DNA from: Candidatus Rokuibacteriota bacterium
Lineage (GTDB): Bacteria > Methylomirabilota > Methylomirabilia > Rokubacteriales > CSP1-6
DNA: 64,000 nucleotides
Assembly (NCBI GenBank): GCA_003220495.1
Contig: QHSP01000016.1
Span: 87,831 to 151,830 of the forward strand
Direction: 5' to 3'
Below are positions 2,531-27,410 of the stretch, in pieces; position 1 is the first letter of the stretch; every line of letters starts with the position of its first letter. The position numbers and the translations under genes were made by a program. The notes beneath the pieces were generated by a model. It had not been told where the DNA came from and did no database searches. It was given only the letters and a program-made list of their open reading frames with translations.

Positions 2531-3736
2531 TCAGGCCTTCAGGCGGTCGGCGCGCACTTCCTTCGGCAGGCCGAGCACGCGCTCTCCGATGATGTTCTTC
2601 TGGATCTCGGACGAGCCCGAGTAGATCGTGCCCGCGCGCGACCAGAGGAACGCGGTCGCGAAGGTGCCGGGCTCGCCGGAGGAGGTATCGACCTCCTCGA
2701 ACTCCTCGCGCGCGACCATGAGCTGGCCGAACGGGCCGAGGATCTCGAGCGCGAGCTCGTAGTAGCGCTTCTCGAACTCGGTATACGAAAGCTTCGTGAT
2801 CGACGAGGCGGCGCCCGGCGCATCGCCCTTTTGCAGGGCCGAGAGCACGCGCAGCGCGGCGTAGCGCTGCACCTCGAGATCGGCGTAGATGCGCCCCATC
2901 CGCGCGCGCACCGCCGGGTCCTCGATCAGCGGCCGGCCGCCGCGCTTGAGCTCCTTCGTGGCCTTCACCAGCTGGTTGAACGCGGTGACATACCGCGTGA
3001 CGCGCCCGAGCGCGTTCCCACCGCGCTCGAAGCCGAGCGTGGTCTGCGCGATCGCCCAGCCCTCGTTGATGTTGCCGATCAGGTCCGACTTCTCGGCGCG
3101 CGCGTTCGTCATGAAGACCTCGGAGAAGAGCGAGCTGCCCGTGATCTGCTTGAGCGGCCGCACCTCGACGCCGGGCTGGCGCATGTTGAGGAGCACGCAC
3201 GAGATACCGCGGTGCTTGGCCACCTTCGGATCGGTGCGAGCGAGTAGGATGCCCCAGTCGGCGATCGGGCCGCTCGAGGTCCAGATCTTCTGGCCGTTGA
3301 CGACGAAGTGCTCGCCCTGGTCCTCGGCCCGCGTCTTGAGACTCGCGAGGTCCGATCCGGCGTTCGGCTCGGAGTAGAGCTGGCACCAGATCTCCTCGGC
3401 GGTCAGCATCTTCTTCAGATAGCGCTGCTTCTGCGCCTCGGTGCCGTGGACGATGATCGTCGGGCCGATGAACCCGATGCCGAGACCGTTGATGGCCGGC
3501 GGTGCGCTCACGCGCGCCATCTCGTCCTGCACGATCGCCTGCTGCATCGGCGTGGCGCCCCAGCCCCCGTACTCATTGGGCCACAGCATCCCGACGTAGC
3601 CCGCTTCGTAGAGCTTCCGATGCCACGCCTTGCGCTCGTCGAGCGTCTTGAGATCCTGCTTGGGAACATTGGCCTCGAGCCAGCGGCGCGTCGAGGCGCG
3701 GAATTCGCGGTCTTCAGGCGAGTAGTTCAGGTCCAT
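2531..3736 (-). CDS. Acyl-CoA dehydrogenase
   Basis: Acyl-CoA dehydrogenase family (MDLNYSPEDREF...YGGWGATPMQQAIVQDEM...IWTSS). The listed ORF start at 3841 is an in-frame extension; the start was placed at ATG 3734-3736 (complement), which has GGAGG 8 nt upstream. Confidence 0.88.
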   Translation of the reverse strand: MDLNYSPEDREFRASTRRWLEANVPKQDLKTLDERKAWHRKLYEAGYVGMLWPNEYGGWGATPMQQAIVQDEMARVSAPPAINGLGIGFIGPTIIVHGTEAQKQRYLKKMLTAEEIWCQLYSEPNAGSDLASLKTRAEDQGEHFVVNGQKIWTSSGPIADWGILLARTDPKVAKHRGISCVLLNMRQPGVEVRPLKQITGSSLFSEVFMTNARAEKSDLIGNINEGWAIAQTTLGFERGGNALGRVTRYVTAFNQLVKATKELKRGGRPLIEDPAVRARMGRIYADLEVQRYAALRVLSALQKGDAPGAASSITKLSYTEFEKRYYELALEILGPFGQLMVAREEFEEVDTSSGEPGTFATAFLWSRAGTIYSGSSEIQKNIIGERVLGLPKEVRADRLKA

Positions 3737-3752
3737 CGGGTCGGCCTCCGCA

Positions 3753-3804
3753 GTGCGCGCCGCAGGCCGTCGCGGGGCTGGGGCCCCGCCGGCCGAGGCG
3801 CGGC
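3753..3804. repeat. GC-rich palindromic intergenic repeat, copy A (REP-like)
   Basis: gtgcgcgccgcaggccgtcgcggggctggggccccgccggccgaggcgcgg. Near-identical copies at 15357, 31772 (reverse complement) and 48155. Imperfect 40-bp palindrome centred on GGGGCCCC. Confidence 0.5.
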
Positions 3805-3844
3805 TATGACGAATGCACGTTTCTAGCACGCCGGCCAGCACGAA

Positions 3845-4696
3845 TCAACGCGCGGGGGCCGGCAGCCGGTAGATCGCGGTGTGGAGCACGTGGGCGATCG
3901 GGCGGCGCTCGCCGGCGACCAGGACCAGGTCCGCCTCCACGAACTCGCGGCCCTTCTTCTCGAAGAGCGAGCGCACCTTGCCGCGGGTCGACAACGTCTC
4001 GCCGACCTTCGCGCCGCCGAGGTGGCGCACGACGCTTCCGGCGTGGATCCACGGGCTCATGCGGACGTTCTGCGAGAGCGCCTTGTTGGCCTGGTCGAGG
4101 AAGAACCCGGGATGGACCCAGCCGCGCGCGCCGCGATAGATCGAGAGACCGTCGCTGACGCGCTCGAGATATTCGGCGGCGCGCTCGTCGTCGTACGGAT
4201 TGATGGGCGTGCCGAGCGCGCTGAGGCCGGCGAGGTGGTCGCGCGTCGCGAGCGGGCGGTCGGCCGGTAGCGGCGCCGCCGGGTACCGGGCCAGGTTCAC
4301 CGGGACCGGCGAGCCGGCCGGCAGGGTGGCGATCAACGTCGCGCACTCGCCGCCGACGGCGGTCGTTGCCGTGACCGTCGCGGTGAGACCCTTGCGGTCG
4401 CGCGAGGTCACCACACCGGCCAGCCGAACCTCTTCGCCGTCGTGGATGGGCTTGCGGAATCGGGCGTTCGCGGTCCCGCGCTCGAGCCAGGCGGCGCCGA
4501 ACGCCTCGACCAGCGGATGGGTCAGGTACGCGTAGACGGTCACGCCGGGCACGAGCGCGCCGCGAAAGCCGTACTGACGCGCGATCTGCTCGTCGTGGAT
4601 CTTGTTCTCGGAGCTCGAGGACGTGTTGCGAGCCTTGACGTGATACTCGGGCAGGCGCTCCTGGCTATCCGTATCGGCCTCCTTCGTCGACGGCAC
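3845..4696 (-). CDS. MaoC-like (R)-specific enoyl-CoA hydratase/dehydratase, double hotdog fold
   Basis: 283-aa ORF containing a MaoC/hotdog dehydratase region (GALVPGVTVYAYLTHPLVEAFG...). GTG start. The N-terminal ~40 aa are low complexity, so the true start may lie further in. Confidence 0.78.
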   Translation of the reverse strand: MPSTKEADTDSQERLPEYHVKARNTSSSSENKIHDEQIARQYGFRGALVPGVTVYAYLTHPLVEAFGAAWLERGTANARFRKPIHDGEEVRLAGVVTSRDRKGLTATVTATTAVGGECATLIATLPAGSPVPVNLARYPAAPLPADRPLATRDHLAGLSALGTPINPYDDERAAEYLERVSDGLSIYRGARGWVHPGFFLDQANKALSQNVRMSPWIHAGSVVRHLGGAKVGETLSTRGKVRSLFEKKGREFVEADLVLVAGERRPIAHVLHTAIYRLPAPAR

Positions 4697-4720
4697 GGCC
4701 GCCGCCCCAGGTCCGGCAAG

Positions 4721-4728
4721 TATATAAT
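4721..4728 (+). promoter_or_regulatory. Candidate -10 element (TATATAAT) for lemA
   Basis: A perfect TATAAT at 4723-4728 in an otherwise GC-rich spacer, about 10 nt upstream of the lemA ATG. No good -35. It implies a very short leader. Confidence 0.3.
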
Positions 4729-4738
4729 CAACGCGGTC

Positions 4739-5335
4739 ATGTCGCGCGGGCTCCTCATCCCCTTGGTCGTAATCGCCCTACTGGTCATCGGCGTCGGCGC
4801 GTGGGCAGTCTCGATCAACAACCAGCTGGTCGTCCTCGACCAGAACGTCGGCGAGAAGTGGGCGCAGGTGCAGAACGTCTATCAGCGCCGCGCCGACCTC
4901 ATTCCGAATCTCGTCGAGACGGTGAAGGGCTTTGCGGCGCAGGAGCGCACGGTGCTGGAGGAGGTCACGCGCGCGCGGGCGAGCGCCTCCTCGATCCAGC
5001 TCACGCCCGAGGCGCTCAACGACCCCAAGGCGCTCGAGCGGTTCCAGGCCGCGCAGAACCAGCTCTCGGGCGCGCTCTCGCGGCTGCTGGTCACGGTCGA
5101 ACGCTACCCCGAGCTCAAGTCGAACCAGAACTTCCTGGCGCTGCAGAGCCAGCTCGAAGGCACCGAGAACCGGATCACCGTCGAGCGCCGTAACTTCAAT
5201 CAGGCGGTCCGCGACTACAACACGCGCCTGCGGCTCTTCCCGGGCTCGGCGGTCGCGCGCTTCTCGGGCTATCAACCCAAGGCGTTCTTCGAGGCGGCGC
5301 CCGACGCGGCGACCGTCCCCAAGGTGAAGTTCTAG
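4739..5335 (+). CDS. lemA: LemA family protein
   Basis: MSRGLLIPLVVIALLVIGVGAWAVSINNQLVVLDQNVGEKWAQVQNVYQRRADLIPNLV... Single N-terminal transmembrane helix followed by a LemA domain. ATG at 4739. Confidence 0.88.
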   Translation: MSRGLLIPLVVIALLVIGVGAWAVSINNQLVVLDQNVGEKWAQVQNVYQRRADLIPNLVETVKGFAAQERTVLEEVTRARASASSIQLTPEALNDPKALERFQAAQNQLSGALSRLLVTVERYPELKSNQNFLALQSQLEGTENRITVERRNFNQAVRDYNTRLRLFPGSAVARFSGYQPKAFFEAAPDAATVPKVKF

Positions 5336-12714: not shown

Positions 12715-13239
12715 CTAGCAGGCGCGCTCGGGAACCCAGTAGGGCTGGTAGTAACCCCAGGTGTACCCGCGCGGCTCGTAGTGCCCCTCGACCCACAGGG
12801 CGTCGTAGTTGTAGTAGCCCGGGACCCACACGTTCGAGACGTAGCTCTGAGGCACCCAGGCGTAGGCCCAATAGCCGGGGACGACACAGATCTGCGGCGC
12901 GGCGAGATACACCGGCTGCGTGATCACGACGACCGGCACCGGTGAACGGTGGACGATGTTCGGCTGCTGCCGCGGGTCGAGATTCTGCTGTCGTCGGTCG
13001 AGATTCTGCTGCCGTGGGTCGGGATACTGCTGCCGTGGGTCGGGATACTGCTGCCGCGGATCGGGATACTGCTGCCGCGGGTCGCGCGCGATGTCGCCCC
13101 GGAACATCGCGTTCTGCGGGAACTGGCCCGGCGGGATGTCGCCGCCGCTATTGACCGTGATCTTCACACCGGTTGCGCCGGCGCCGCCCGGAATTCCGGC
13201 AACCAGGACGGCCAGCAGCAGGACGGCTACGCTCTTCAC
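12715..13239 (-). CDS. Secreted repeat protein: signal peptide, DPRQQYP heptad tandem repeats, and a C-terminal aromatic WVPGYY-type (YXWGXW-like) repeat region
   Basis: VKSVAVLLLAVLVAGIPGGAGA is a signal peptide. This is followed by PRQQYPD three times and PRQQNLD twice, then ...YWAYAWVPQSYVSNVWVPGYYNYDALWVEGHYEPRGYTWGYYQPYWVPERAC. GTG start. Confidence 0.7.
   Translation of the reverse strand: MKSVAVLLLAVLVAGIPGGAGATGVKITVNSGGDIPPGQFPQNAMFRGDIARDPRQQYPDPRQQYPDPRQQYPDPRQQNLDRRQQNLDPRQQPNIVHRSPVPVVVITQPVYLAAPQICVVPGYWAYAWVPQSYVSNVWVPGYYNYDALWVEGHYEPRGYTWGYYQPYWVPERAC
12955..13084. repeat. 21-bp tandem repeat, about 6 copies, in-frame coding
   Basis: The units gtcgagattctgctgtcgtcg, gtcgagattctgctgccgtgg, gtcgggatactgctgccgtgg, gtcgggatactgctgccgcgg and atcgggatactgctgccgcgg encode the DPRQQYP repeats on the minus strand. 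Confidence 0.85.
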
Positions 13240-13295
13240 GTCGACGACTCCTCTCTACACTCTATACGGTTCGACTCGCGGGGACGGGTTTCCAT

Positions 13296-22125: not shown

Positions 22126-23940
22126 ATGGCTCCGAACGCTGAAGACTTGGCCAAGCGCCTGGCAGCACTGAGCGAACGATTCACGACTCTCGCGGCAACG
22201 CTCGCTCAGGCCACTCAACAGGTCCAGGCCGGGACCGTCCCGTCCGAGACCGTCATCGACGAAATCACCAAGATACGCACAGACTTCGTCGAGGTCCGCC
22301 AACGCGTGCTGGAGGCGGCTCGCTCGCTCTCGATCACCGTGCCGGCAATCTCGGAAGTCGACAGTGTCCGGGCGCTCGAGCCAATGCTCGAGACCGTCAT
22401 GCAGGCCGTGGCGAACCAGGAGAAGAGGGCGGCCCTGGCGGAAGCGCGCACCCGGGTCATGGCGCTGCTGGACCGGATACTGACGGTCACACACTCCGAC
22501 GGTCCGAACTTCGCCGCGCTGGTCCAGTGTCTGATCAAGGCCAGGGATATACGGCAGGCAGCCCAGGATCCCAAGGCGTTTGATTCTGAGGACGCCCCGG
22601 CCTTTCTCAACAGCATTCCGGCGTTTGCCGCCTTGCTCTCGATCATCGAGGGGCGCGACGCCCTCGACGACGACAAGTTCGCTGTCCTGGACGAGCAGGT
22701 GACCCAAGCCTTCGGAAGGACCCTGGCCGTCGCGGCGGCTCGCGGCAAGCTCACCGTCGGCGCAGGCTCCGCGCCGGTGGTGGACCGGACGGCCCCGCCC
22801 GCACCGAAGGAGCCGGTAGCTCGGACCGCGGCGGCTGCGGCGGCGCGCGCTCCGGCGCCGGTGCTCACGCCCAACCCGGCTCCCGTCGCGCCGGCGGCTC
22901 CCTCGCGAAACATCATCATCACGGAGCCGCGCGAGCCCGTCCAGCCCCGCGAGCCTGCCCAGCCGCGTGAGCCCGTTCTGGTGCCCGAGACCGCCCCGCC
23001 ACGCGAAGCCGCGCCGCCACGCGAAGCCGCCCAGCCACGCGAAGCCGCCCAGCCGGCCGACCAGGGAACTCAAGACGAGGCGGCGCAGTGGTGGGTTTCG
23101 GCGTGGGCGCGCTGGACGCAGTGGAAGGGCACGCTCGCCTTCAACGACGCCGTGAAGGAAGAGCTCGGCAAGTACAACTACGTCCTCAGCGTGCCGATCC
23201 AGCGGAGCACGGACTACGAGGAAGGCCTTCTCTCGTACGGCTACTCGATCCTCCTCGATCACATCGAGCACCGGTTCTCCGGCTTCGTCAACAAGGCGCT
23301 GAACAGCCTCAAGACGTTCCAGCCGGGCGCCGCGGGCGCGCAGAAGTCGGTCGGCGCCCACCTCTACAACGTCCTCGTGAGCGAGGGGCGGCTGCAGGAG
23401 ATCTATCCCGAGTTCGTCAAGAGCGTGCTCCTCGCTGCCGTGCCCGAGCCCGGGCTCTGGACCCACGCGCGGATTCTGGAGTCGACCACCGAGACGCGGA
23501 TCTTCACGCATCCGAGCAATCGCATCGGCGATCCCGAGCACAATTCGCAGCGGCTCACCCAGGAGCGGCAGCGGTTCGCCGACCATCGCTTCCCGGTTGT
23601 CGTGGCGCCGATCACCGCTCGCTTCTTCGCGATCGCCGCCGACTTGCGTGAGCCGCGGTCCATCGACGTGAAGCTCGTGGACGGGCGCAGCGACTCCGAT
23701 CACGCATGGCTCTTGACGATGCCGCCCGTCGGACGAGCCGACCTGAAGTCCGAGGTGCTGCGGCTCTTCCCGGAGGGAACCTCGGTGCCGGGGCTGGGAC
23801 GGGACTACGCGACCTTGTGGGTGGCGGTGTTCAACCCGGATCCGAGCGTGGAGAAGAAGTACGAGCTGACCTTGAGCCTCAAGCAGTCGGCCGCGACCAA
23901 GCAATCAGCCGGGACCTTCCGCTCGGCGCGGAGCGCCTGA
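22126..23940 (+). CDS. Large hypothetical protein (604 aa): helical N-terminal region, Ala/Pro-rich linker with PREP(V/A)Q tandem repeats, C-terminal Trp-rich domain of about 300 aa; no recognisable family
   Basis: Long ORF. The antisense frame is an obvious high-GC artefact (R/G-rich). The protein has a balanced composition outside the linker. I found no similarity to any family I know. Confidence 0.75.
   Translation: MAPNAEDLAKRLAALSERFTTLAATLAQATQQVQAGTVPSETVIDEITKIRTDFVEVRQRVLEAARSLSITVPAISEVDSVRALEPMLETVMQAVANQEKRAALAEARTRVMALLDRILTVTHSDGPNFAALVQCLIKARDIRQAAQDPKAFDSEDAPAFLNSIPAFAALLSIIEGRDALDDDKFAVLDEQVTQAFGRTLAVAAARGKLTVGAGSAPVVDRTAPPAPKEPVARTAAAAAARAPAPVLTPNPAPVAPAAPSRNIIITEPREPVQPREPAQPREPVLVPETAPPREAAPPREAAQPREAAQPADQGTQDEAAQWWVSAWARWTQWKGTLAFNDAVKEELGKYNYVLSVPIQRSTDYEEGLLSYGYSILLDHIEHRFSGFVNKALNSLKTFQPGAAGAQKSVGAHLYNVLVSEGRLQEIYPEFVKSVLLAAVPEPGLWTHARILESTTETRIFTHPSNRIGDPEHNSQRLTQERQRFADHRFPVVVAPITARFFAIAADLREPRSIDVKLVDGRSDSDHAWLLTMPPVGRADLKSEVLRLFPEGTSVPGLGRDYATLWVAVFNPDPSVEKKYELTLSLKQSAATKQSAGTFRSARSA
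22924..23060. repeat. 18-bp tandem repeats encoding PREPVQ/PREPAQ/PREAAP/PREAAQ
   Basis: ccacgcgaagccgcccag occurs twice in perfect tandem. It is preceded by ccacgcgaagccgcgccg and by diverged units ccccgcgagcctgcccag and ccgcgtgagcccgttctg. Confidence 0.7.
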
Positions 23941-23943
23941 GAT

Positions 23944-24357
23944 CTAGGACTTCGCGGGGTCGGCCGCCTTCGGCTGCTCTGCGACCTTCGCCGATTCGGG
24001 GGCCCTGGCGTGGTCGGGCGGGCGCGGGGGCTCCCCGGGCCCGGATCGTTCGAAGGGGCTGCGGCGCGGGGTGATACCGAGCTTCGCCGCGATCTGTCCC
24101 ATCGCCTGGGCGATCTCATCCTTCTCGAGCCGGAGCAGGTGATTCTCCCGCTTCAGGTCCTCGATGTCCTTGTGAAGCTTGTCCACTTCCTTCTGCGCTG
24201 CAGCGCCCGCGTGGTGGTCGCCCGCGATGAGCTCGGGCAAGAGACCGAAGATCTGCCGCGTCTCCTCGATCCACTTCGCGATTCGCTCTCGCGCTTCAGC
24301 AGCGGATGTAGGGTCCATGGCCATCCTCGTCTGCTCCGGGGCGCGGTCCGTCGCCAT
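23944..24357 (-). CDS. Hypothetical small coiled-coil protein
   Basis: 137 aa; ...AQKEVDKLHKDIEDLKRENHLLRLEKDEIAQAMGQIAAKL... has heptad-like spacing. It is convergent with the 604-aa gene, only 3 nt tail-to-tail. Coding status is not certain. Confidence 0.45.
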   Translation of the reverse strand: MATDRAPEQTRMAMDPTSAAEARERIAKWIEETRQIFGLLPELIAGDHHAGAAAQKEVDKLHKDIEDLKRENHLLRLEKDEIAQAMGQIAAKLGITPRRSPFERSGPGEPPRPPDHARAPESAKVAEQPKAADPAKS

Positions 24358-24473: not shown

Positions 24474-25046
24474 TCAGGGCGTCGCGGGCGCGGCCAGGAC
24501 GGCCTCGATAAACTGGCGTCCTTTCGGACTATCCCACGGTCTCGGCCCCGCGGCCCGCCCGACCAGCCGACCCTGGCGGTCGACGATGTACACGGTCGGC
24601 GGACCCCAGACGCCGTACACCTTGCCGGTCACATCCCCGCTTTCGTCGAGCAGCACCGGTGCGATGTAGCGGCGCTCCTTGACGGCTTGCCGGACCTTGT
24701 CGGCATCTTCCCTGAAATCGATGAGGAGTACTTCGAGGCCCTTACCGCGAAAGTCCTGGTAGACCTTCTGGACGGGAGGCAACTCCTCCCGGCACGTGCT
24801 TCACCACGTGGCCCAGAAGAAAAGCATCACGACTTTACCGCGTAAGTCGGCGAGGCTGACCGTCTTGCCGCCCAGATCCGGCAGCGAGAAGTCCGGCGCC
24901 GCCTTCGGCGGCGTGTACGGCTGCATCTGCACGCTGGCGAAGTCCGGCGGAGCGACCGCCCCCGGTGTGAGCGTCGCCGAGGCGACCAGCGCCGCGGTCA
25001 GGACTACGACGGGCACGAGTGATCTCATAAGCGCAGGGTATCGCAT
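24474..25046 (-). CDS. Selenocysteine-containing TlpA/ResA-like thiol:disulfide oxidoreductase (thioredoxin fold, signal peptide); in-frame TGA at 24801-24803 (complement)
   Basis: ORFs 24801..25046 and 24474..24782 are in the same frame. Joined, they read ...[30 protein letters not shown]..., which matches the TlpA/ResA active site FWATWCxPC with Sec replacing the first Cys. The second ORF piece begins with TTG, not a real start. Confidence 0.7.
24773..24791 (-). other. SECIS-like hairpin 9 nt downstream of the UGA
   Basis: On the mRNA: UGA agcacgugc CGGGAGG-aguug-CCUCCCG. 7-bp GC stem with a GU-containing apical loop, at the distance expected for a bacterial SECIS. Confidence 0.45.
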
Positions 25047-25061
25047 GACGCCAGCCCGCGG

Positions 25062-27410
25062 CTATCTCTGCCGGAGTGCCCGCACGACGCGCTCCGGGGT
25101 GATCGGCTGGTCGCTGAGCATCACGCCGAGCGGCGCCAACGCGTCGTTGACGGCGTTCAGGATTGCGGCGGGCGCCCCCGTCACCCCCGCTTCGCCGGCG
25201 CCCTTGAAGCCGCCGGCGAGTCCCGGGGCCGGCGACTCGAGGTGATACATCTCGATCGGTGGGAGGTCGGCGCAGGTCGGTACCGCGTAGTCCATCAGAG
25301 TCGTCGAAAGAAGCTGCCCCGTATCGTCGTAGACACAGTGCTCCATCAGCGCGCCGCCGAGCCCCTGGGCGACCCCGCCCGCGATCTGGCCCTCGACGAG
25401 CGCGGGATTGATGATGCGCCCGCAGTCGTCGACGGCGACGTATCTCAGGATACGCACCCGGCCCGTGTCGGTGTCGACCTCGACGACGGCGAGGTGGGCG
25501 CCGTTGGTGAAGGTCCACGCGCCCGGGTTCGTATAGTGCACGGTCGCCTCGAGGCTCGGCTCGACACCCCGGAGCTCGTTCGACCGGAAGTGCGCGGCGC
25601 GCGCGAGCTCGGCGTAGCTCAGGCCCCGCTCTGGGCTCCCGCGGACCGCGGCGCGGCTGCCGCCGAGCTCGATGTCGGCGGCGTGCGCCTCCAGAAGCGC
25701 CGCCGCGACCGTCCGGATGCGCTCTCCGAGCGCCCGTGCGGCGAGCAAGGTCGCGCTTCCGCCGATCGGCATGCCGCGGCTCGCCCAGGTGCCTCCGCCA
25801 TAGGGCACCACGGCGGTGTCGCCGGAGAGCACCGCGACGTCGTCGAGGGGAACGTCGAGCACGTCGGCGATGATCTGCGCGAGCGCCGTGTGAGTCCCCT
25901 GGCCCTGATTGGTGACGCCGACGAGCGCCGTGACCGCGCCGCCGGGCTCGAGGCGTACGGTCGTTCCTTCCTGGCCCGAGATCGGCGCGCCCCCGACGCC
26001 GTAGAACTGCGCGCCCGGGCCGGTGAGCTCGACGAAGCACGCGAGCCCGATTCCCACGTGACGTCCCGCGGCGCGAGCCGCCCCCTGCTCCCTCCGTAGC
26101 CGGTCGTAGTCGGCAGCCTCCAGGAGACGCGCCAGCGCGGCCTGATAGCTGCCGCTGTCGAAGACGTTGCCCGCCGCCGAGGTGTAGGGAAGATCCTCGG
26201 GCCGCACCAGATTGCGCCGCCGCGCCTCCGCGGGGTCGAGTCCGAGGTCGCGCGCGACGAGATCGATCATGCTCTCGGTCACGGCGGTGGCGATCGGATG
26301 TCCGACGGCGCGGTACTGCGAGGTGATCACCTTGTTCTGTGCCACGACGCGCAGGGCCGCGTCGTAGTTCCGCACGCGATAGGGTCCCGGGAGCAAACGA
26401 AGCACCTGGCCACCCTCGACGACGCTCGAACGCGGATATGCGGAGTACGGTCCGACCGCGGCGGTGATGCTCGCCCGCATCGCGGTCAGGATTCCCTCGC
26501 CGTCGGCCGCGACCTCGACGCGGATCGTCTGCTCGCGCGCGTGGATGTCGGACAGAAAGGATTCGCGCCGGCTCGCGACGAACTTGACGGGCCGGCCGAG
26601 CGTCAGCGCGAGCGCGCAGGCCGCCATGTCGTCCTGGTAGACGTGGATCTTGATGCCGAAGCTGCCGCCGACGTCGGGGGCGATGACCCGAACGCGCTGC
26701 TCGCGCAGGCCGAAGAGCTCCGCGAGCACGGCTTGCATCATGTGCGGGACCTGGGTCGAGATCCACACCGTGAGCGCGCGCGTGGCGGGCTCGTAGTCGG
26801 CGATCAGGCTTCGCGGCTCGAGCGGCACGCCCGTGTGACGGCCCGTCGTGAACGTGCGCACCCACACGCGCCCGGCGTCGGCGAAGGCGCGCTCGACGTC
26901 CCCGGCGGTGAGTCGCGTCTCGTAGAGGACGTTGTCGCCGAGCTCGGGATGGATCAGGGGCGCGCCGGCCGCCACCGCGCTCTCCGGCGCGAGCACCGCG
27001 GGCAGCGGCTCGTACTCCACCTCGATCAGCGCCGCCGCGTCGTCGGCCGCCGCCCGGCTCTCGGCGGCGACCGCAACGATCGGCTCGCCGACGTAGCGCA
27101 CGCGATCGACGGCGAGCGGGCGCATGGCGCCCGTCTTCATGCCCTTGTAGTGGAGGAGGACGCCGCGATAGGGCTTGCACAGCGTGGCGACGGCGTCGCC
27201 GGTCAGCACGCCGACGACCCCGGGCGCCCGGCGCGCGCGGTCGAGCTCGACGTGGACGAGCCGCGCGTGGGCGTGGACGCTCCGAACGAAGGCGGCGTGG
27301 ACCATCCGAGGCAACGTCACGTCGTCGACGTAACGGCCGCGGCCGGTCAGCAGGCGGGGGTCGTCGCCGCGTTTGACGCGCGCTCCGATTCGGCCCGCCG
27401 GCGACGACAC
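25062..27410 (-). CDS. Xanthine dehydrogenase family protein, molybdopterin-binding (large) subunit
   Basis: 782 aa; Ald_Xan_dh_C and C2 domain organisation (...GGSFGIK..., ...QGQGTHTALAQI..., ...GEAGVTGAPAAILNAVNDAL...). The form-I CO-dehydrogenase VAYRCSFR loop is absent. No adjacent FeS or FAD subunit genes. Confidence 0.9.
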   Translation of the reverse strand: MSSPAGRIGARVKRGDDPRLLTGRGRYVDDVTLPRMVHAAFVRSVHAHARLVHVELDRARRAPGVVGVLTGDAVATLCKPYRGVLLHYKGMKTGAMRPLAVDRVRYVGEPIVAVAAESRAAADDAAALIEVEYEPLPAVLAPESAVAAGAPLIHPELGDNVLYETRLTAGDVERAFADAGRVWVRTFTTGRHTGVPLEPRSLIADYEPATRALTVWISTQVPHMMQAVLAELFGLREQRVRVIAPDVGGSFGIKIHVYQDDMAACALALTLGRPVKFVASRRESFLSDIHAREQTIRVEVAADGEGILTAMRASITAAVGPYSAYPRSSVVEGGQVLRLLPGPYRVRNYDAALRVVAQNKVITSQYRAVGHPIATAVTESMIDLVARDLGLDPAEARRRNLVRPEDLPYTSAAGNVFDSGSYQAALARLLEAADYDRLRREQGAARAAGRHVGIGLACFVELTGPGAQFYGVGGAPISGQEGTTVRLEPGGAVTALVGVTNQGQGTHTALAQIIADVLDVPLDDVAVLSGDTAVVPYGGGTWASRGMPIGGSATLLAARALGERIRTVAAALLEAHAADIELGGSRAAVRGSPERGLSYAELARAAHFRSNELRGVEPSLEATVHYTNPGAWTFTNGAHLAVVEVDTDTGRVRILRYVAVDDCGRIINPALVEGQIAGGVAQGLGGALMEHCVYDDTGQLLSTTLMDYAVPTCADLPPIEMYHLESPAPGLAGGFKGAGEAGVTGAPAAILNAVNDALAPLGVMLSDQPITPERVVRALRQR

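Follow-up and report, generated by a model that had tools for sequence, protein, structure and literature searches.

The locus described here raises the question of whether a TGA codon that lies within an open frame is used as a stop at all. It is found in a stretch of 64,000 nucleotides from a Candidatus Rokuibacteriota bacterium (assembly GCA_003220495.1, contig QHSP01000016.1, positions 87,831 to 151,830), which is referred to below as the window; all positions are counted from its first nucleotide. On the minus strand, the program that lists open reading frames (ORFs) splits the locus into two short pieces, 24801..25046 (81 amino acids, aa) and 24474..24782 (102 aa, with only a TTG start). 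An earlier reading made from the sequence alone (the sequence-only reading) had proposed that these pieces are the two halves of one gene for a TlpA/ResA-like thioredoxin-fold protein containing selenocysteine (Sec), split at an in-frame TGA. There is strong support for the view that translation does not end at the UGA at 24803..24801, and equally for the view that a 19-nucleotide hairpin behind it behaves as a bacterial selenocysteine insertion sequence (SECIS) element. Judging from sequence comparison, it is very likely that 25046..24474 is a genuine selenoprotein gene, encoding a presumably exported TlpA/ResA-like thiol-disulfide oxidoreductase with Sec as its nucleophile.

A single frame across the in-frame UGA

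The features of the gene, all on the minus strand, are given below with the evidence for each.

25046..24474, minus strand: complete gene, very probably for a selenoprotein (sequence, translation, ungapped collinear orthologues)
24951..25046, minus strand: putative N-terminal export signal, residues 1-32 (read from the sequence)
24564..24905, minus strand: TlpA/ResA-type thioredoxin-fold domain, residues 48-161 (Pfam, PDB relatives)
24801..24803, minus strand: in-frame UGA, very probably read as Sec (U82), the first residue of W-U-S-T-C (TGA conservation, cysteine in homologues)
24792..24794, minus strand: resolving cysteine C85 of the UxxC motif (invariant column in a 42-sequence alignment)
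24773..24791, minus strand: SECIS-type hairpin inside the coding sequence (fold energy, covariation, frozen synonymous sites)
24597..24599, minus strand: Pro150 of the GPPT motif, the cis-proline position (invariant column in the 42-sequence alignment)

When the sequence and its translation were read again, the coordinates given for both ORFs and for the hairpin in the sequence-only reading all proved correct. From an ATG at 25046 to a terminal TGA at 24476..24474, the locus is a single frame of 190 codons (189 residues and the stop) that ends in AAPATP. The in-frame TGA is codon 82 and the same frame continues behind it, the order being a putative signal peptide, then FFWATW-UGA-STCREE, then the remaining part of the thioredoxin fold, which is of the TlpA/ResA type.

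At the N-terminus, a basic n-region (MRYPALMRS) is followed by a hydrophobic core and by an AVA motif directly ahead of PPDF, and all orthologues have a hydrophobic N-terminus with A-x-A before PDF. This points to an export signal, in the form of a signal peptide that is cleaved off or of one that anchors the protein in the membrane. A second in-frame ATG at 25028..25026 (Met7) is a possible alternative start. Since the matches of three of the retrieved loci (L004, L006 and L007) open at query residue 7, and several other loci have a non-ATG codon at the position of the first ATG, the true start may be at 25028.

Conservation of the UGA and coding selection on both sides of it

The orthologue scan took one genome per species and returned 49 loci. 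The retrieval patterns included MLFFWATW, so that the flanking motif was partly selected for but the codon after it was not. TGA was found at the same column, with the frame continuing behind it, in 28 of 28 Rokubacteria/Methylomirabilota loci and in five loci from Chloroflexi. Counted over the aligned Rokubacteria orthologues it is present in 27 of 27, and also in the two damaged loci L027 and L028. More distant homologues carry TGC or TGT at that column, within a WCxxC motif. Orthologues of the Sec form and of the cysteine (Cys) form were both found.

Downstream of the TGA, the mean pairwise differences at codon positions 1, 2 and 3 were 0.22, 0.17 and 0.46, respectively (27 orthologues, 95 codons, ungapped), and the same measure upstream gave 0.21, 0.16 and 0.45 (codons of the search pattern excluded). 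The third-position-dominated differences are equally strong on both sides, so that protein-coding selection on the downstream half matches that on the upstream half, and the downstream half is translated. The proposal that one gene had been split at an in-frame TGA is therefore upheld by the conserved frame, by coding selection on both sides and by a single Pfam domain that runs across the codon (see below).

The six frames of the window contain 228 in-frame TGAs that are flanked by 40 or more open codons both before and behind. When these were ranked by the coding signature of their two flanks, the codon-82 TGA came first, and none of the others was a plausible Sec site. The TGA at 3845-3847, which separates two minus-strand ORFs in the same frame (3845-4777 and 2531-3844), was considered as a second Sec site and rejected as an ordinary stop. 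Translation at 2531-4777 showed that a MaoC-like dehydratase ends normally and that the start of an acyl-CoA dehydrogenase (MDLNY...) lies about 35 codons further on. TGA ends 27 of the 52 ORF segments of the window that have a high GC content at third codon positions, and it also ends the selenoprotein gene itself. Since TGA is an ordinary stop here, a genome-wide reassignment of this codon is excluded.

No orthologue was found to end at the TGA as a decaying pseudogene, save for one frameshifted second copy. This copy, L027 (3001-3573), lies in a metagenome-assembled genome (MAG) that also holds the intact L024. Several frameshifts interrupt it and its hairpin contains an A-C mismatch; from its sequence, it is probably a decaying pseudogene. 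In L028 (3001-3451) the C-terminal half is frameshifted, and the peroxiredoxin (Prx) gene upstream of it matches in pieces across frames. These defects may reflect either pseudogenisation or long-read assembly errors.

A SECIS-type hairpin behind the UGA

The 19-nucleotide hairpin begins 9 nt past the UGA and comprises a 5' stem CGGGAGG (24791..24785), a loop AGUUG (24784..24780) and a 3' stem CCUCCCG (24779..24773). It dominates the minimum free energy (MFE) fold, and the local RNA fold had a z-score of -3.3, with none of 200 shuffles being as stable. The published consensus for bacterial SECIS (bSECIS) elements has a loop of 3-9 nt, an upper stem of 4-16 bp and a G in the first two loop positions (PMC13188914), together with 16-37 nt from the UGA to the loop and an MFE <= -7.5 kcal/mol (PMC13188914). 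With a 5-nt loop, a 7-bp stem, a spacing of 16 nt and -12.4 kcal/mol, the hairpin falls within all of these limits, and its loop has a G at position 2 with a U next to it.

The hairpin is also conserved as a structure. Over 29 TGA-bearing loci (28 distinct sequences), 99% of cells were paired and two pairs showed compensatory changes: pair 16-28 is G:C in 13 sequences, G:U in 8 and A:U in 7, and pair 17-27 is once G:C. Neither the observed pairing nor the covariation score was reached by any of 500 shuffles, and pairing fell to 54-68% when the partners were slid out of register. The compensatory change shows even in the protein, where REELPP (GGGAGG:CCUCCC) alternates with RKELPS (GGAAGG:CCUUCC). 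The likeness to a bacterial SECIS element that had been seen in the sequence-only reading is therefore substantiated, both by the published bSECIS model and by covariation.

Synonymous sites within the hairpin are nearly frozen. Codons +4 to +10 (CGG GAG GAG TTG CCT CCC GTC) had a third-position diversity of 0-0.14, as against a downstream mean of 0.455. Arg is encoded by CGG and Leu by TTG in all 27 sequences, and Pro by CCT in 26 of the 27; the window has 69.5% GC overall and about 90% GC at third positions, and TTG and CCT end in G and T, respectively. The hairpins of the Chloroflexi Sec forms are unrelated in sequence, lie at the same distance and have loops that open with G (GAGGGAUG-GUUC-CAUCCCUC and GGGCGAU-GGU-AUCGUCC). 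A further small hairpin, CACGUG-GUGAAG-CACGUG, which encloses the UGA, was dismissed, as it is not conserved in the orthologues.

Cysteine-form orthologues as a control

A search of metagenome proteins recovered full-length Cys forms (WCPDC) with 51-69% identity. The DNA of six of these was compared (L050 416-949, L053 804-1340, L054 1001-1543, L055 1001-1528, L056 1001-1546 and L057 193-735). Four of the six keep the peptide C-R-E-E-L-P-S/A, and the stem is broken in all six, with 1-4 mismatches of 7. The changes that break it are mostly synonymous, CGG being replaced by CGA, CGC or CGT, CCT by CCA or CCG, and TTG by TTA or CTG. The MFE of the hairpin was -2.2 to -5.5 kcal/mol in the Cys forms versus -9.5 to -12.4 kcal/mol in the three stem variants of the TGA form that were folded. 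Intact stems were found in 28 of 30 TGA forms and in none of the six Cys forms (Fisher p=1.4e-5, without phylogenetic correction); the imperfect stems among the TGA forms are those of L012, where a single C-A pair closes the stem at its base, and of L027. It is thus the UGA, and not the amino acid sequence, that the constraint on the hairpin follows.

The Cys forms retain 3-6 of the 7 stem pairs, several of them 5-6, and four of the six have AGUUG or AGUUA as their loop. A rough neighbour-joining tree, which carries no support values, placed them among the Sec forms at four or more points. From these sequences we tentatively suggest that Sec may have been replaced by Cys repeatedly and independently, leaving fossil SECIS elements behind. 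Replacement in the direction from Sec to Cys is regarded as rare in the literature.

Domain and fold

With Cys put in place of the stop, the protein gave a single Pfam AhpC-TSA match (PF00578, E=3e-27) that covers residues 48-161 and thus spans codon 82. Redoxin (9e-23) and Thioredoxin_8 (3e-12) also matched above their cut-offs, and PF13098 matched weakly (E=1e-5), just under its cut-off. The closest solved structure was 3kcm, a thioredoxin-family protein of Geobacter metallireducens (E=3e-27), followed by Bacillus ResA and Bradyrhizobium TlpA. The 3kcm segment FWATWCPPCREEIP aligns on the active site of the window protein, with WCPPCREE over W-U-STCREE. Alignment to TlpA/ResA homologues and to the solved structures therefore confirms the earlier placing of the TGA column at the N-terminal Cys of the CxxC motif. 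The invariant columns of the 42-sequence alignment are W78, C82 (U), C85 and P150, and the C85 codon is TGC or TGT in all orthologues. We take Pro150 to be in the cis conformation, as is usual for the family.

The AlphaFold model of the Cys orthologue P0001, which is 66-69% identical to the window protein, had a predicted local distance difference test (pLDDT) score of 94.2. In this model Cys69, the equivalent of the Sec, stands directly ahead of helix 70-86, which is the canonical position of the nucleophile, and the N-terminus forms a lone helix followed by an unstructured linker. Compared with 3kcm, ResA and TlpA, the model gave target-normalised template-modelling (TM) scores of 0.74-0.93, with about 0.9 for 3kcm and ResA, and root-mean-square deviations of 1.2-1.6 A.

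No NCBIfam model reached its cut-off for the window protein. The nearest were ResA (NF002854, 95 bits versus a cut-off of 170) and TlpA (NF047696, 79 versus 230 bits), and the Sec-specific ResA-like models NF041054 (WAxxUGC) and NF053656 (TUGYCR) scored 68 versus 300 bits and 23 versus 100 bits, respectively. By sequence the protein is accordingly best described as a relative of the ResA/TlpA family, not as an equivalog.

Indications of selenocysteine use in the lineage

In 13 more divergent loci (L014-L025 and L028), the gene directly upstream encodes an exported BCP/PrxQ-like peroxiredoxin with an in-frame TGA of its own. This TGA falls at the column of the peroxidatic Cys (...YTFIQAFTGT-U-TKEIRGF...), giving a TxxU motif. 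The positions of this gene (Sec-Prx), which is recognised by its in-frame TGA, are given for four of the loci.

L023, 2393-2935: Sec-Prx with in-frame TGA
L024, 2372-2926: Sec-Prx with in-frame TGA
L016, 2450-2989: Sec-Prx with in-frame TGA
L018, 2390-2932: Sec-Prx with in-frame TGA

The Sec-Prx likewise precedes the Cys-form TlpA gene in four of the six loci for which DNA was compared (L050 and L053-L055). In L057 only the C-terminal end of the upstream ORF is present, and the gene calls of the P0004 contig show the same split Prx. No Sec-Prx was found in the window by tblastn. In the literature, a Methylomirabilota MAG has been credited with 63 predicted selenoprotein genes in a review (PMC13188914), and Sec-type [NiFe] hydrogenases have been listed from Methylomirabilota (PMC13582414). 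The adjacent Sec-Prx, together with the selenoproteins predicted for that MAG and the hydrogenases, provides indirect support for the use of Sec in this lineage.

Alternative explanations

The protein could be a selenoprotein and nevertheless serve as a maturation factor for cytochrome c or cytochrome oxidase, as a true ResA/CcmG or TlpA orthologue would, and not to reduce an exported peroxiredoxin or some other antioxidant enzyme. In favour of this, the NCBIfam models that score best are those for the ResA subfamily and the TlpA equivalog, the closest solved folds include ResA and TlpA, and an ORF about 2 kb upstream in Chloroflexi locus L031 contains an NPC motif and looked CcdA-like when read by eye. 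Both NCBIfam scores, however, are far under their cut-offs. Furthermore, the inspected flanks of the related loci hold genes for a CoA-transferase, a xanthine dehydrogenase (XDH)-family subunit, ABC transporters and, in 13 loci, the Sec-Prx, and neither these flanks nor the window showed any ccm, res, sco or cox gene. We therefore consider a role in cytochrome maturation to be rather unlikely.

It is very improbable that the hairpin assists in recoding the UGA to a residue other than Sec. The residue could in that case be Cys, delivered by a SelB-dependent non-canonical tRNA of the sort described for some bacteria, or Trp, inserted by near-cognate read-through. Sequence analysis by itself cannot decide between inserted residues, the orthologues of the Cys form function with Cys at this site and branch among the Sec forms in the rough tree, and the Sec machinery of the source genome was not observed in the 64-kb window. 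Against this, the Prx, as a further gene whose TGA falls on a catalytic Cys, and the large selenoproteomes predicted for Methylomirabilota fit ordinary Sec insertion, and if the product were the same as that of TGC, it would be hard to see why a UGA and a constrained hairpin are kept over dozens of species. Genome-wide reassignment of TGA is moreover excluded, as it ends about half of the genes in the window.

A broken gene, in which a nonsense mutation or a TGC/TGT-to-TGA error of sequencing or assembly left an 81-residue stub and a remnant, or else two short genes, is scarcely credible: public gene calls do treat the locus in this way (for example the C-terminal fragments of 105-130 aa in the protein entries P0017, P0018 and P0020), the downstream ORF has a possible TTG start and the related copy L027 is really frameshifted, but the same TGA occurs in 28 independent Rokubacteria and five Chloroflexi assemblies, third-position-dominated substitution is as strong downstream as upstream, the RNA-level constraint on the hairpin is present only with TGA, and half a thioredoxin fold would make no stable protein.

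The reading that we prefer, a selenoprotein gene decoded with the help of a SECIS element, has several observations weighing against it. ARAGORN detected no tRNA, and hence no tRNA-Sec, in the window, nor any tRNA or tRNA-Sec in loci L001-L034. No selA, selB or selD was recognisable among the approximately 45 ORFs of the window when their translations were read by eye; the presence of Sec machinery in the source genome is an assumption. The loop AGUUG does not fit an optional refinement of the bSECIS pattern in which N1 and N2 pair. No Rfam family matched the hairpin, either in the whole window at gathering thresholds or in 24600-24950 at a permissive threshold, where the sole match was a chance one to livK (E=9.5); bacterial SECIS elements are poorly covered in Rfam. 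The Fisher test and the shuffle controls were made without phylogenetic correction. As regards the proposed partners, the clade of the window itself lacks the adjacent Sec-Prx and has a gene for an XDH/CoxL-family subunit upstream, and a tblastn search with the L031 ORF as query found no CcdA/DsbD homologue in the window (in the loci it returned only the query itself).

Proposed mechanism and possible partners

Following the established bacterial mechanism, the hairpin would bind SelB carrying GTP and Sec-tRNA(Sec), and SelB, competing with release factor 2, would bring Sec to the ribosome. By means of its N-terminal signal, the full-length protein would then be exported and would act as a disulfide reductase outside the cytoplasm. 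There, U82 is expected to attack a substrate disulfide (or sulfenate), and C85 to resolve the Se-S intermediate. More speculatively, the enzyme might be recharged by a membrane electron transporter of the CcdA/DsbD/ScsB type, and one of its substrates might be an exported PrxQ-type peroxiredoxin, which in the sister lineages is itself a selenoprotein encoded directly upstream.

The suggestion of a peroxiredoxin partner is made because of the gene adjacency in the sister clade and because of the Caulobacter ScsB-TlpA-PprX pathway. By this analogy, it is quite possible, though we put it forward tentatively, that the TlpA-like selenoprotein serves an exported peroxiredoxin. A bolder and more doubtful version of the proposal is that it is the dedicated reductant of an exported PrxQ-type selenoprotein. 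The two would then form an all-selenium peroxide relay in the envelope, evolutionarily labile, with repeated switches from Sec to Cys in the TlpA partner. If true, this relay would be the selenium counterpart of the TlpA-PprX pathway of Caulobacter, and no such counterpart has been described previously.

The L031 ORF (3-947), located about 2 kb upstream of the Sec-form TlpA-like gene of this Chloroflexi locus, has multiple hydrophobic segments in addition to its NPC motif. Read by eye, it looks like a CcdA/DsbD-type membrane protein and would be a possible electron donor.

Gene neighbourhood

In the window's clade, an ABC substrate-binding protein on the opposite strand is followed by the XDH/CoxL-family molybdenum-binding subunit (25062-27410) and then by the selenoprotein gene. 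Beyond it are a gene for a 137-aa protein (23944-24357), one for a 604-aa protein on the other strand and a family III CoA-transferase. This order is kept in L001-L013 and L026. The selenoprotein gene lies 15 nt downstream of the XDH-family gene, and the two may share a transcript. In the sister clade the Sec-Prx takes the place of the XDH gene, and the CoA-transferase follows directly after the selenoprotein gene. A scan for promoters and terminators around the gene gave nothing above chance.

Two of these neighbours have no Pfam match and are syntenic in L001-L013 and L026. The 137-aa protein (23944-24357, minus strand) is probably a coiled coil, and the 604-aa protein (22126-23940, plus strand) contains a proline-rich repeat, PREPVQPREPAQPREP...PPREAAQPREAAQP. 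Elsewhere in the window, the ORF at 12715-13254 (minus strand) translates into a small, secreted-looking protein with a DPRQQYP/DPRQQNL tandem repeat of about six copies and a Tyr/Trp-rich C-terminus.

Database records and significance

Among the public gene calls that were sampled, the gene is found split, truncated or mistranslated. P0017, P0018 and P0020 are C-terminal fragments, and the entire active-site segment is missing from P0009 and P0019, as though removed by splicing. In P0003 the codon given as W is TGA at the DNA level (L051 464-997). In P0012 (L052 235-765) the codon is a real GGA (Gly), with an intact hairpin, on a contig of 1.9x coverage, and P0010 has L at the Sec column, as seen from the protein entry alone. 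The state of the two NCBI-sourced entries, P0018 (a C-terminal fragment) and P0019 (without the active site), may be due to the fact that no NCBIfam model captures the clade. A model for the clade would allow records to be corrected in MAGs of Rokubacteria/Methylomirabilota and Chloroflexi.

With this gene, a poorly known phylum without cultured members gains a probably exported UxxC selenoprotein, and the presence of a Sec-Prx and Sec-TlpA pair in the envelope is suggested. The set of Sec and Cys orthologues is a clean natural experiment, in which the same amino acids are encoded with a hairpin that is frozen where the UGA is present and decays where it is not. This set should be useful for training predictors of SECIS elements and selenoproteins. 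What is known of Sec decoding itself is unchanged.

Comparison with known systems

Our literature search on Rokubacteria and selenocysteine found nothing specific to the window protein. Related proteins are well known, since UxxC selenoproteins of thioredoxin and Prx-like folds have been catalogued since 2004-2008. The Prx-like thiol:disulfide oxidoreductase or 'Prx-like 1' family (Kryukov, Zhang, Gladyshev) shares with the window protein PF00578, a UxxC and not a TxxU motif, widespread Cys homologues and a bSECIS element directly past the UGA. The window gene belongs to this family by definition (PF00578 together with UxxC), WP_010940744.1 being one of the family's reference sequences. The reference members come mostly from Deltaproteobacteria and marine metagenomes, whereas the clade of the window is made up of Rokubacteria/Methylomirabilota MAGs, several of them, according to their record titles, from soil and groundwater, and has as features of its own the invariant FFWATW-U-xxCR signature and the hairpin.

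A UxxC TlpA-like selenoprotein family (PMC13188914, Table 1) has the TlpA-like fold, the UxxC motif and a predicted redox role in common with the window protein, but PF13098 is not the best-scoring family for the latter. NF041054 and NF053656 likewise describe ResA-like folds with an active-site Sec. The WAxxU pattern is shared with NF041054, whereas its spacing is U-G-C and that of the window protein U-S-T-C (UxxC). Bacillus ResA, Bradyrhizobium TlpA and 3kcm have the same fold, the nucleophile before helix alpha-1, the conserved Pro and, as predicted for the window protein, an N-terminal export or anchor segment. Unlike the window protein, which has Sec and no adjacent cytochrome maturation genes, these are Cys enzymes.

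In Caulobacter, the transfer from ScsB to TlpA and on to the exported PrxQ-type PprX has been shown experimentally (PMC3322552). The likeness to our system lies in the combination of a TlpA-like exported thioredoxin with a BCP/PrxQ-type peroxiredoxin, the two being adjacent in 13 sister-clade loci, and the link is drawn from gene adjacency only. In contrast to Caulobacter, one or both of the partners in the sister clade are selenoproteins, the pairing is absent at the window locus and no ScsB/DsbD was found nearby.

The SECIS elements of Escherichia coli fdhF and fdnG are, like the hairpin described here, stem-loops within the coding sequence right after the UGA, with G/U at the start of the loop, and the SelB-binding upper hairpin in E. 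coli starts about 9-11 nt from the UGA. The two differ in that there is no sequence similarity between them and in that the window hairpin has a perfect 7-bp stem with an AGUUG loop and no bulged U. Taken together, the gene is a real and already familiar kind of bacterial selenoprotein, routinely split by gene callers. What is particular to this case is a clade not captured by any NCBIfam model, that of the Rokubacteria/Methylomirabilota, with its FFWATW-U-xxCR signature and its hairpin.

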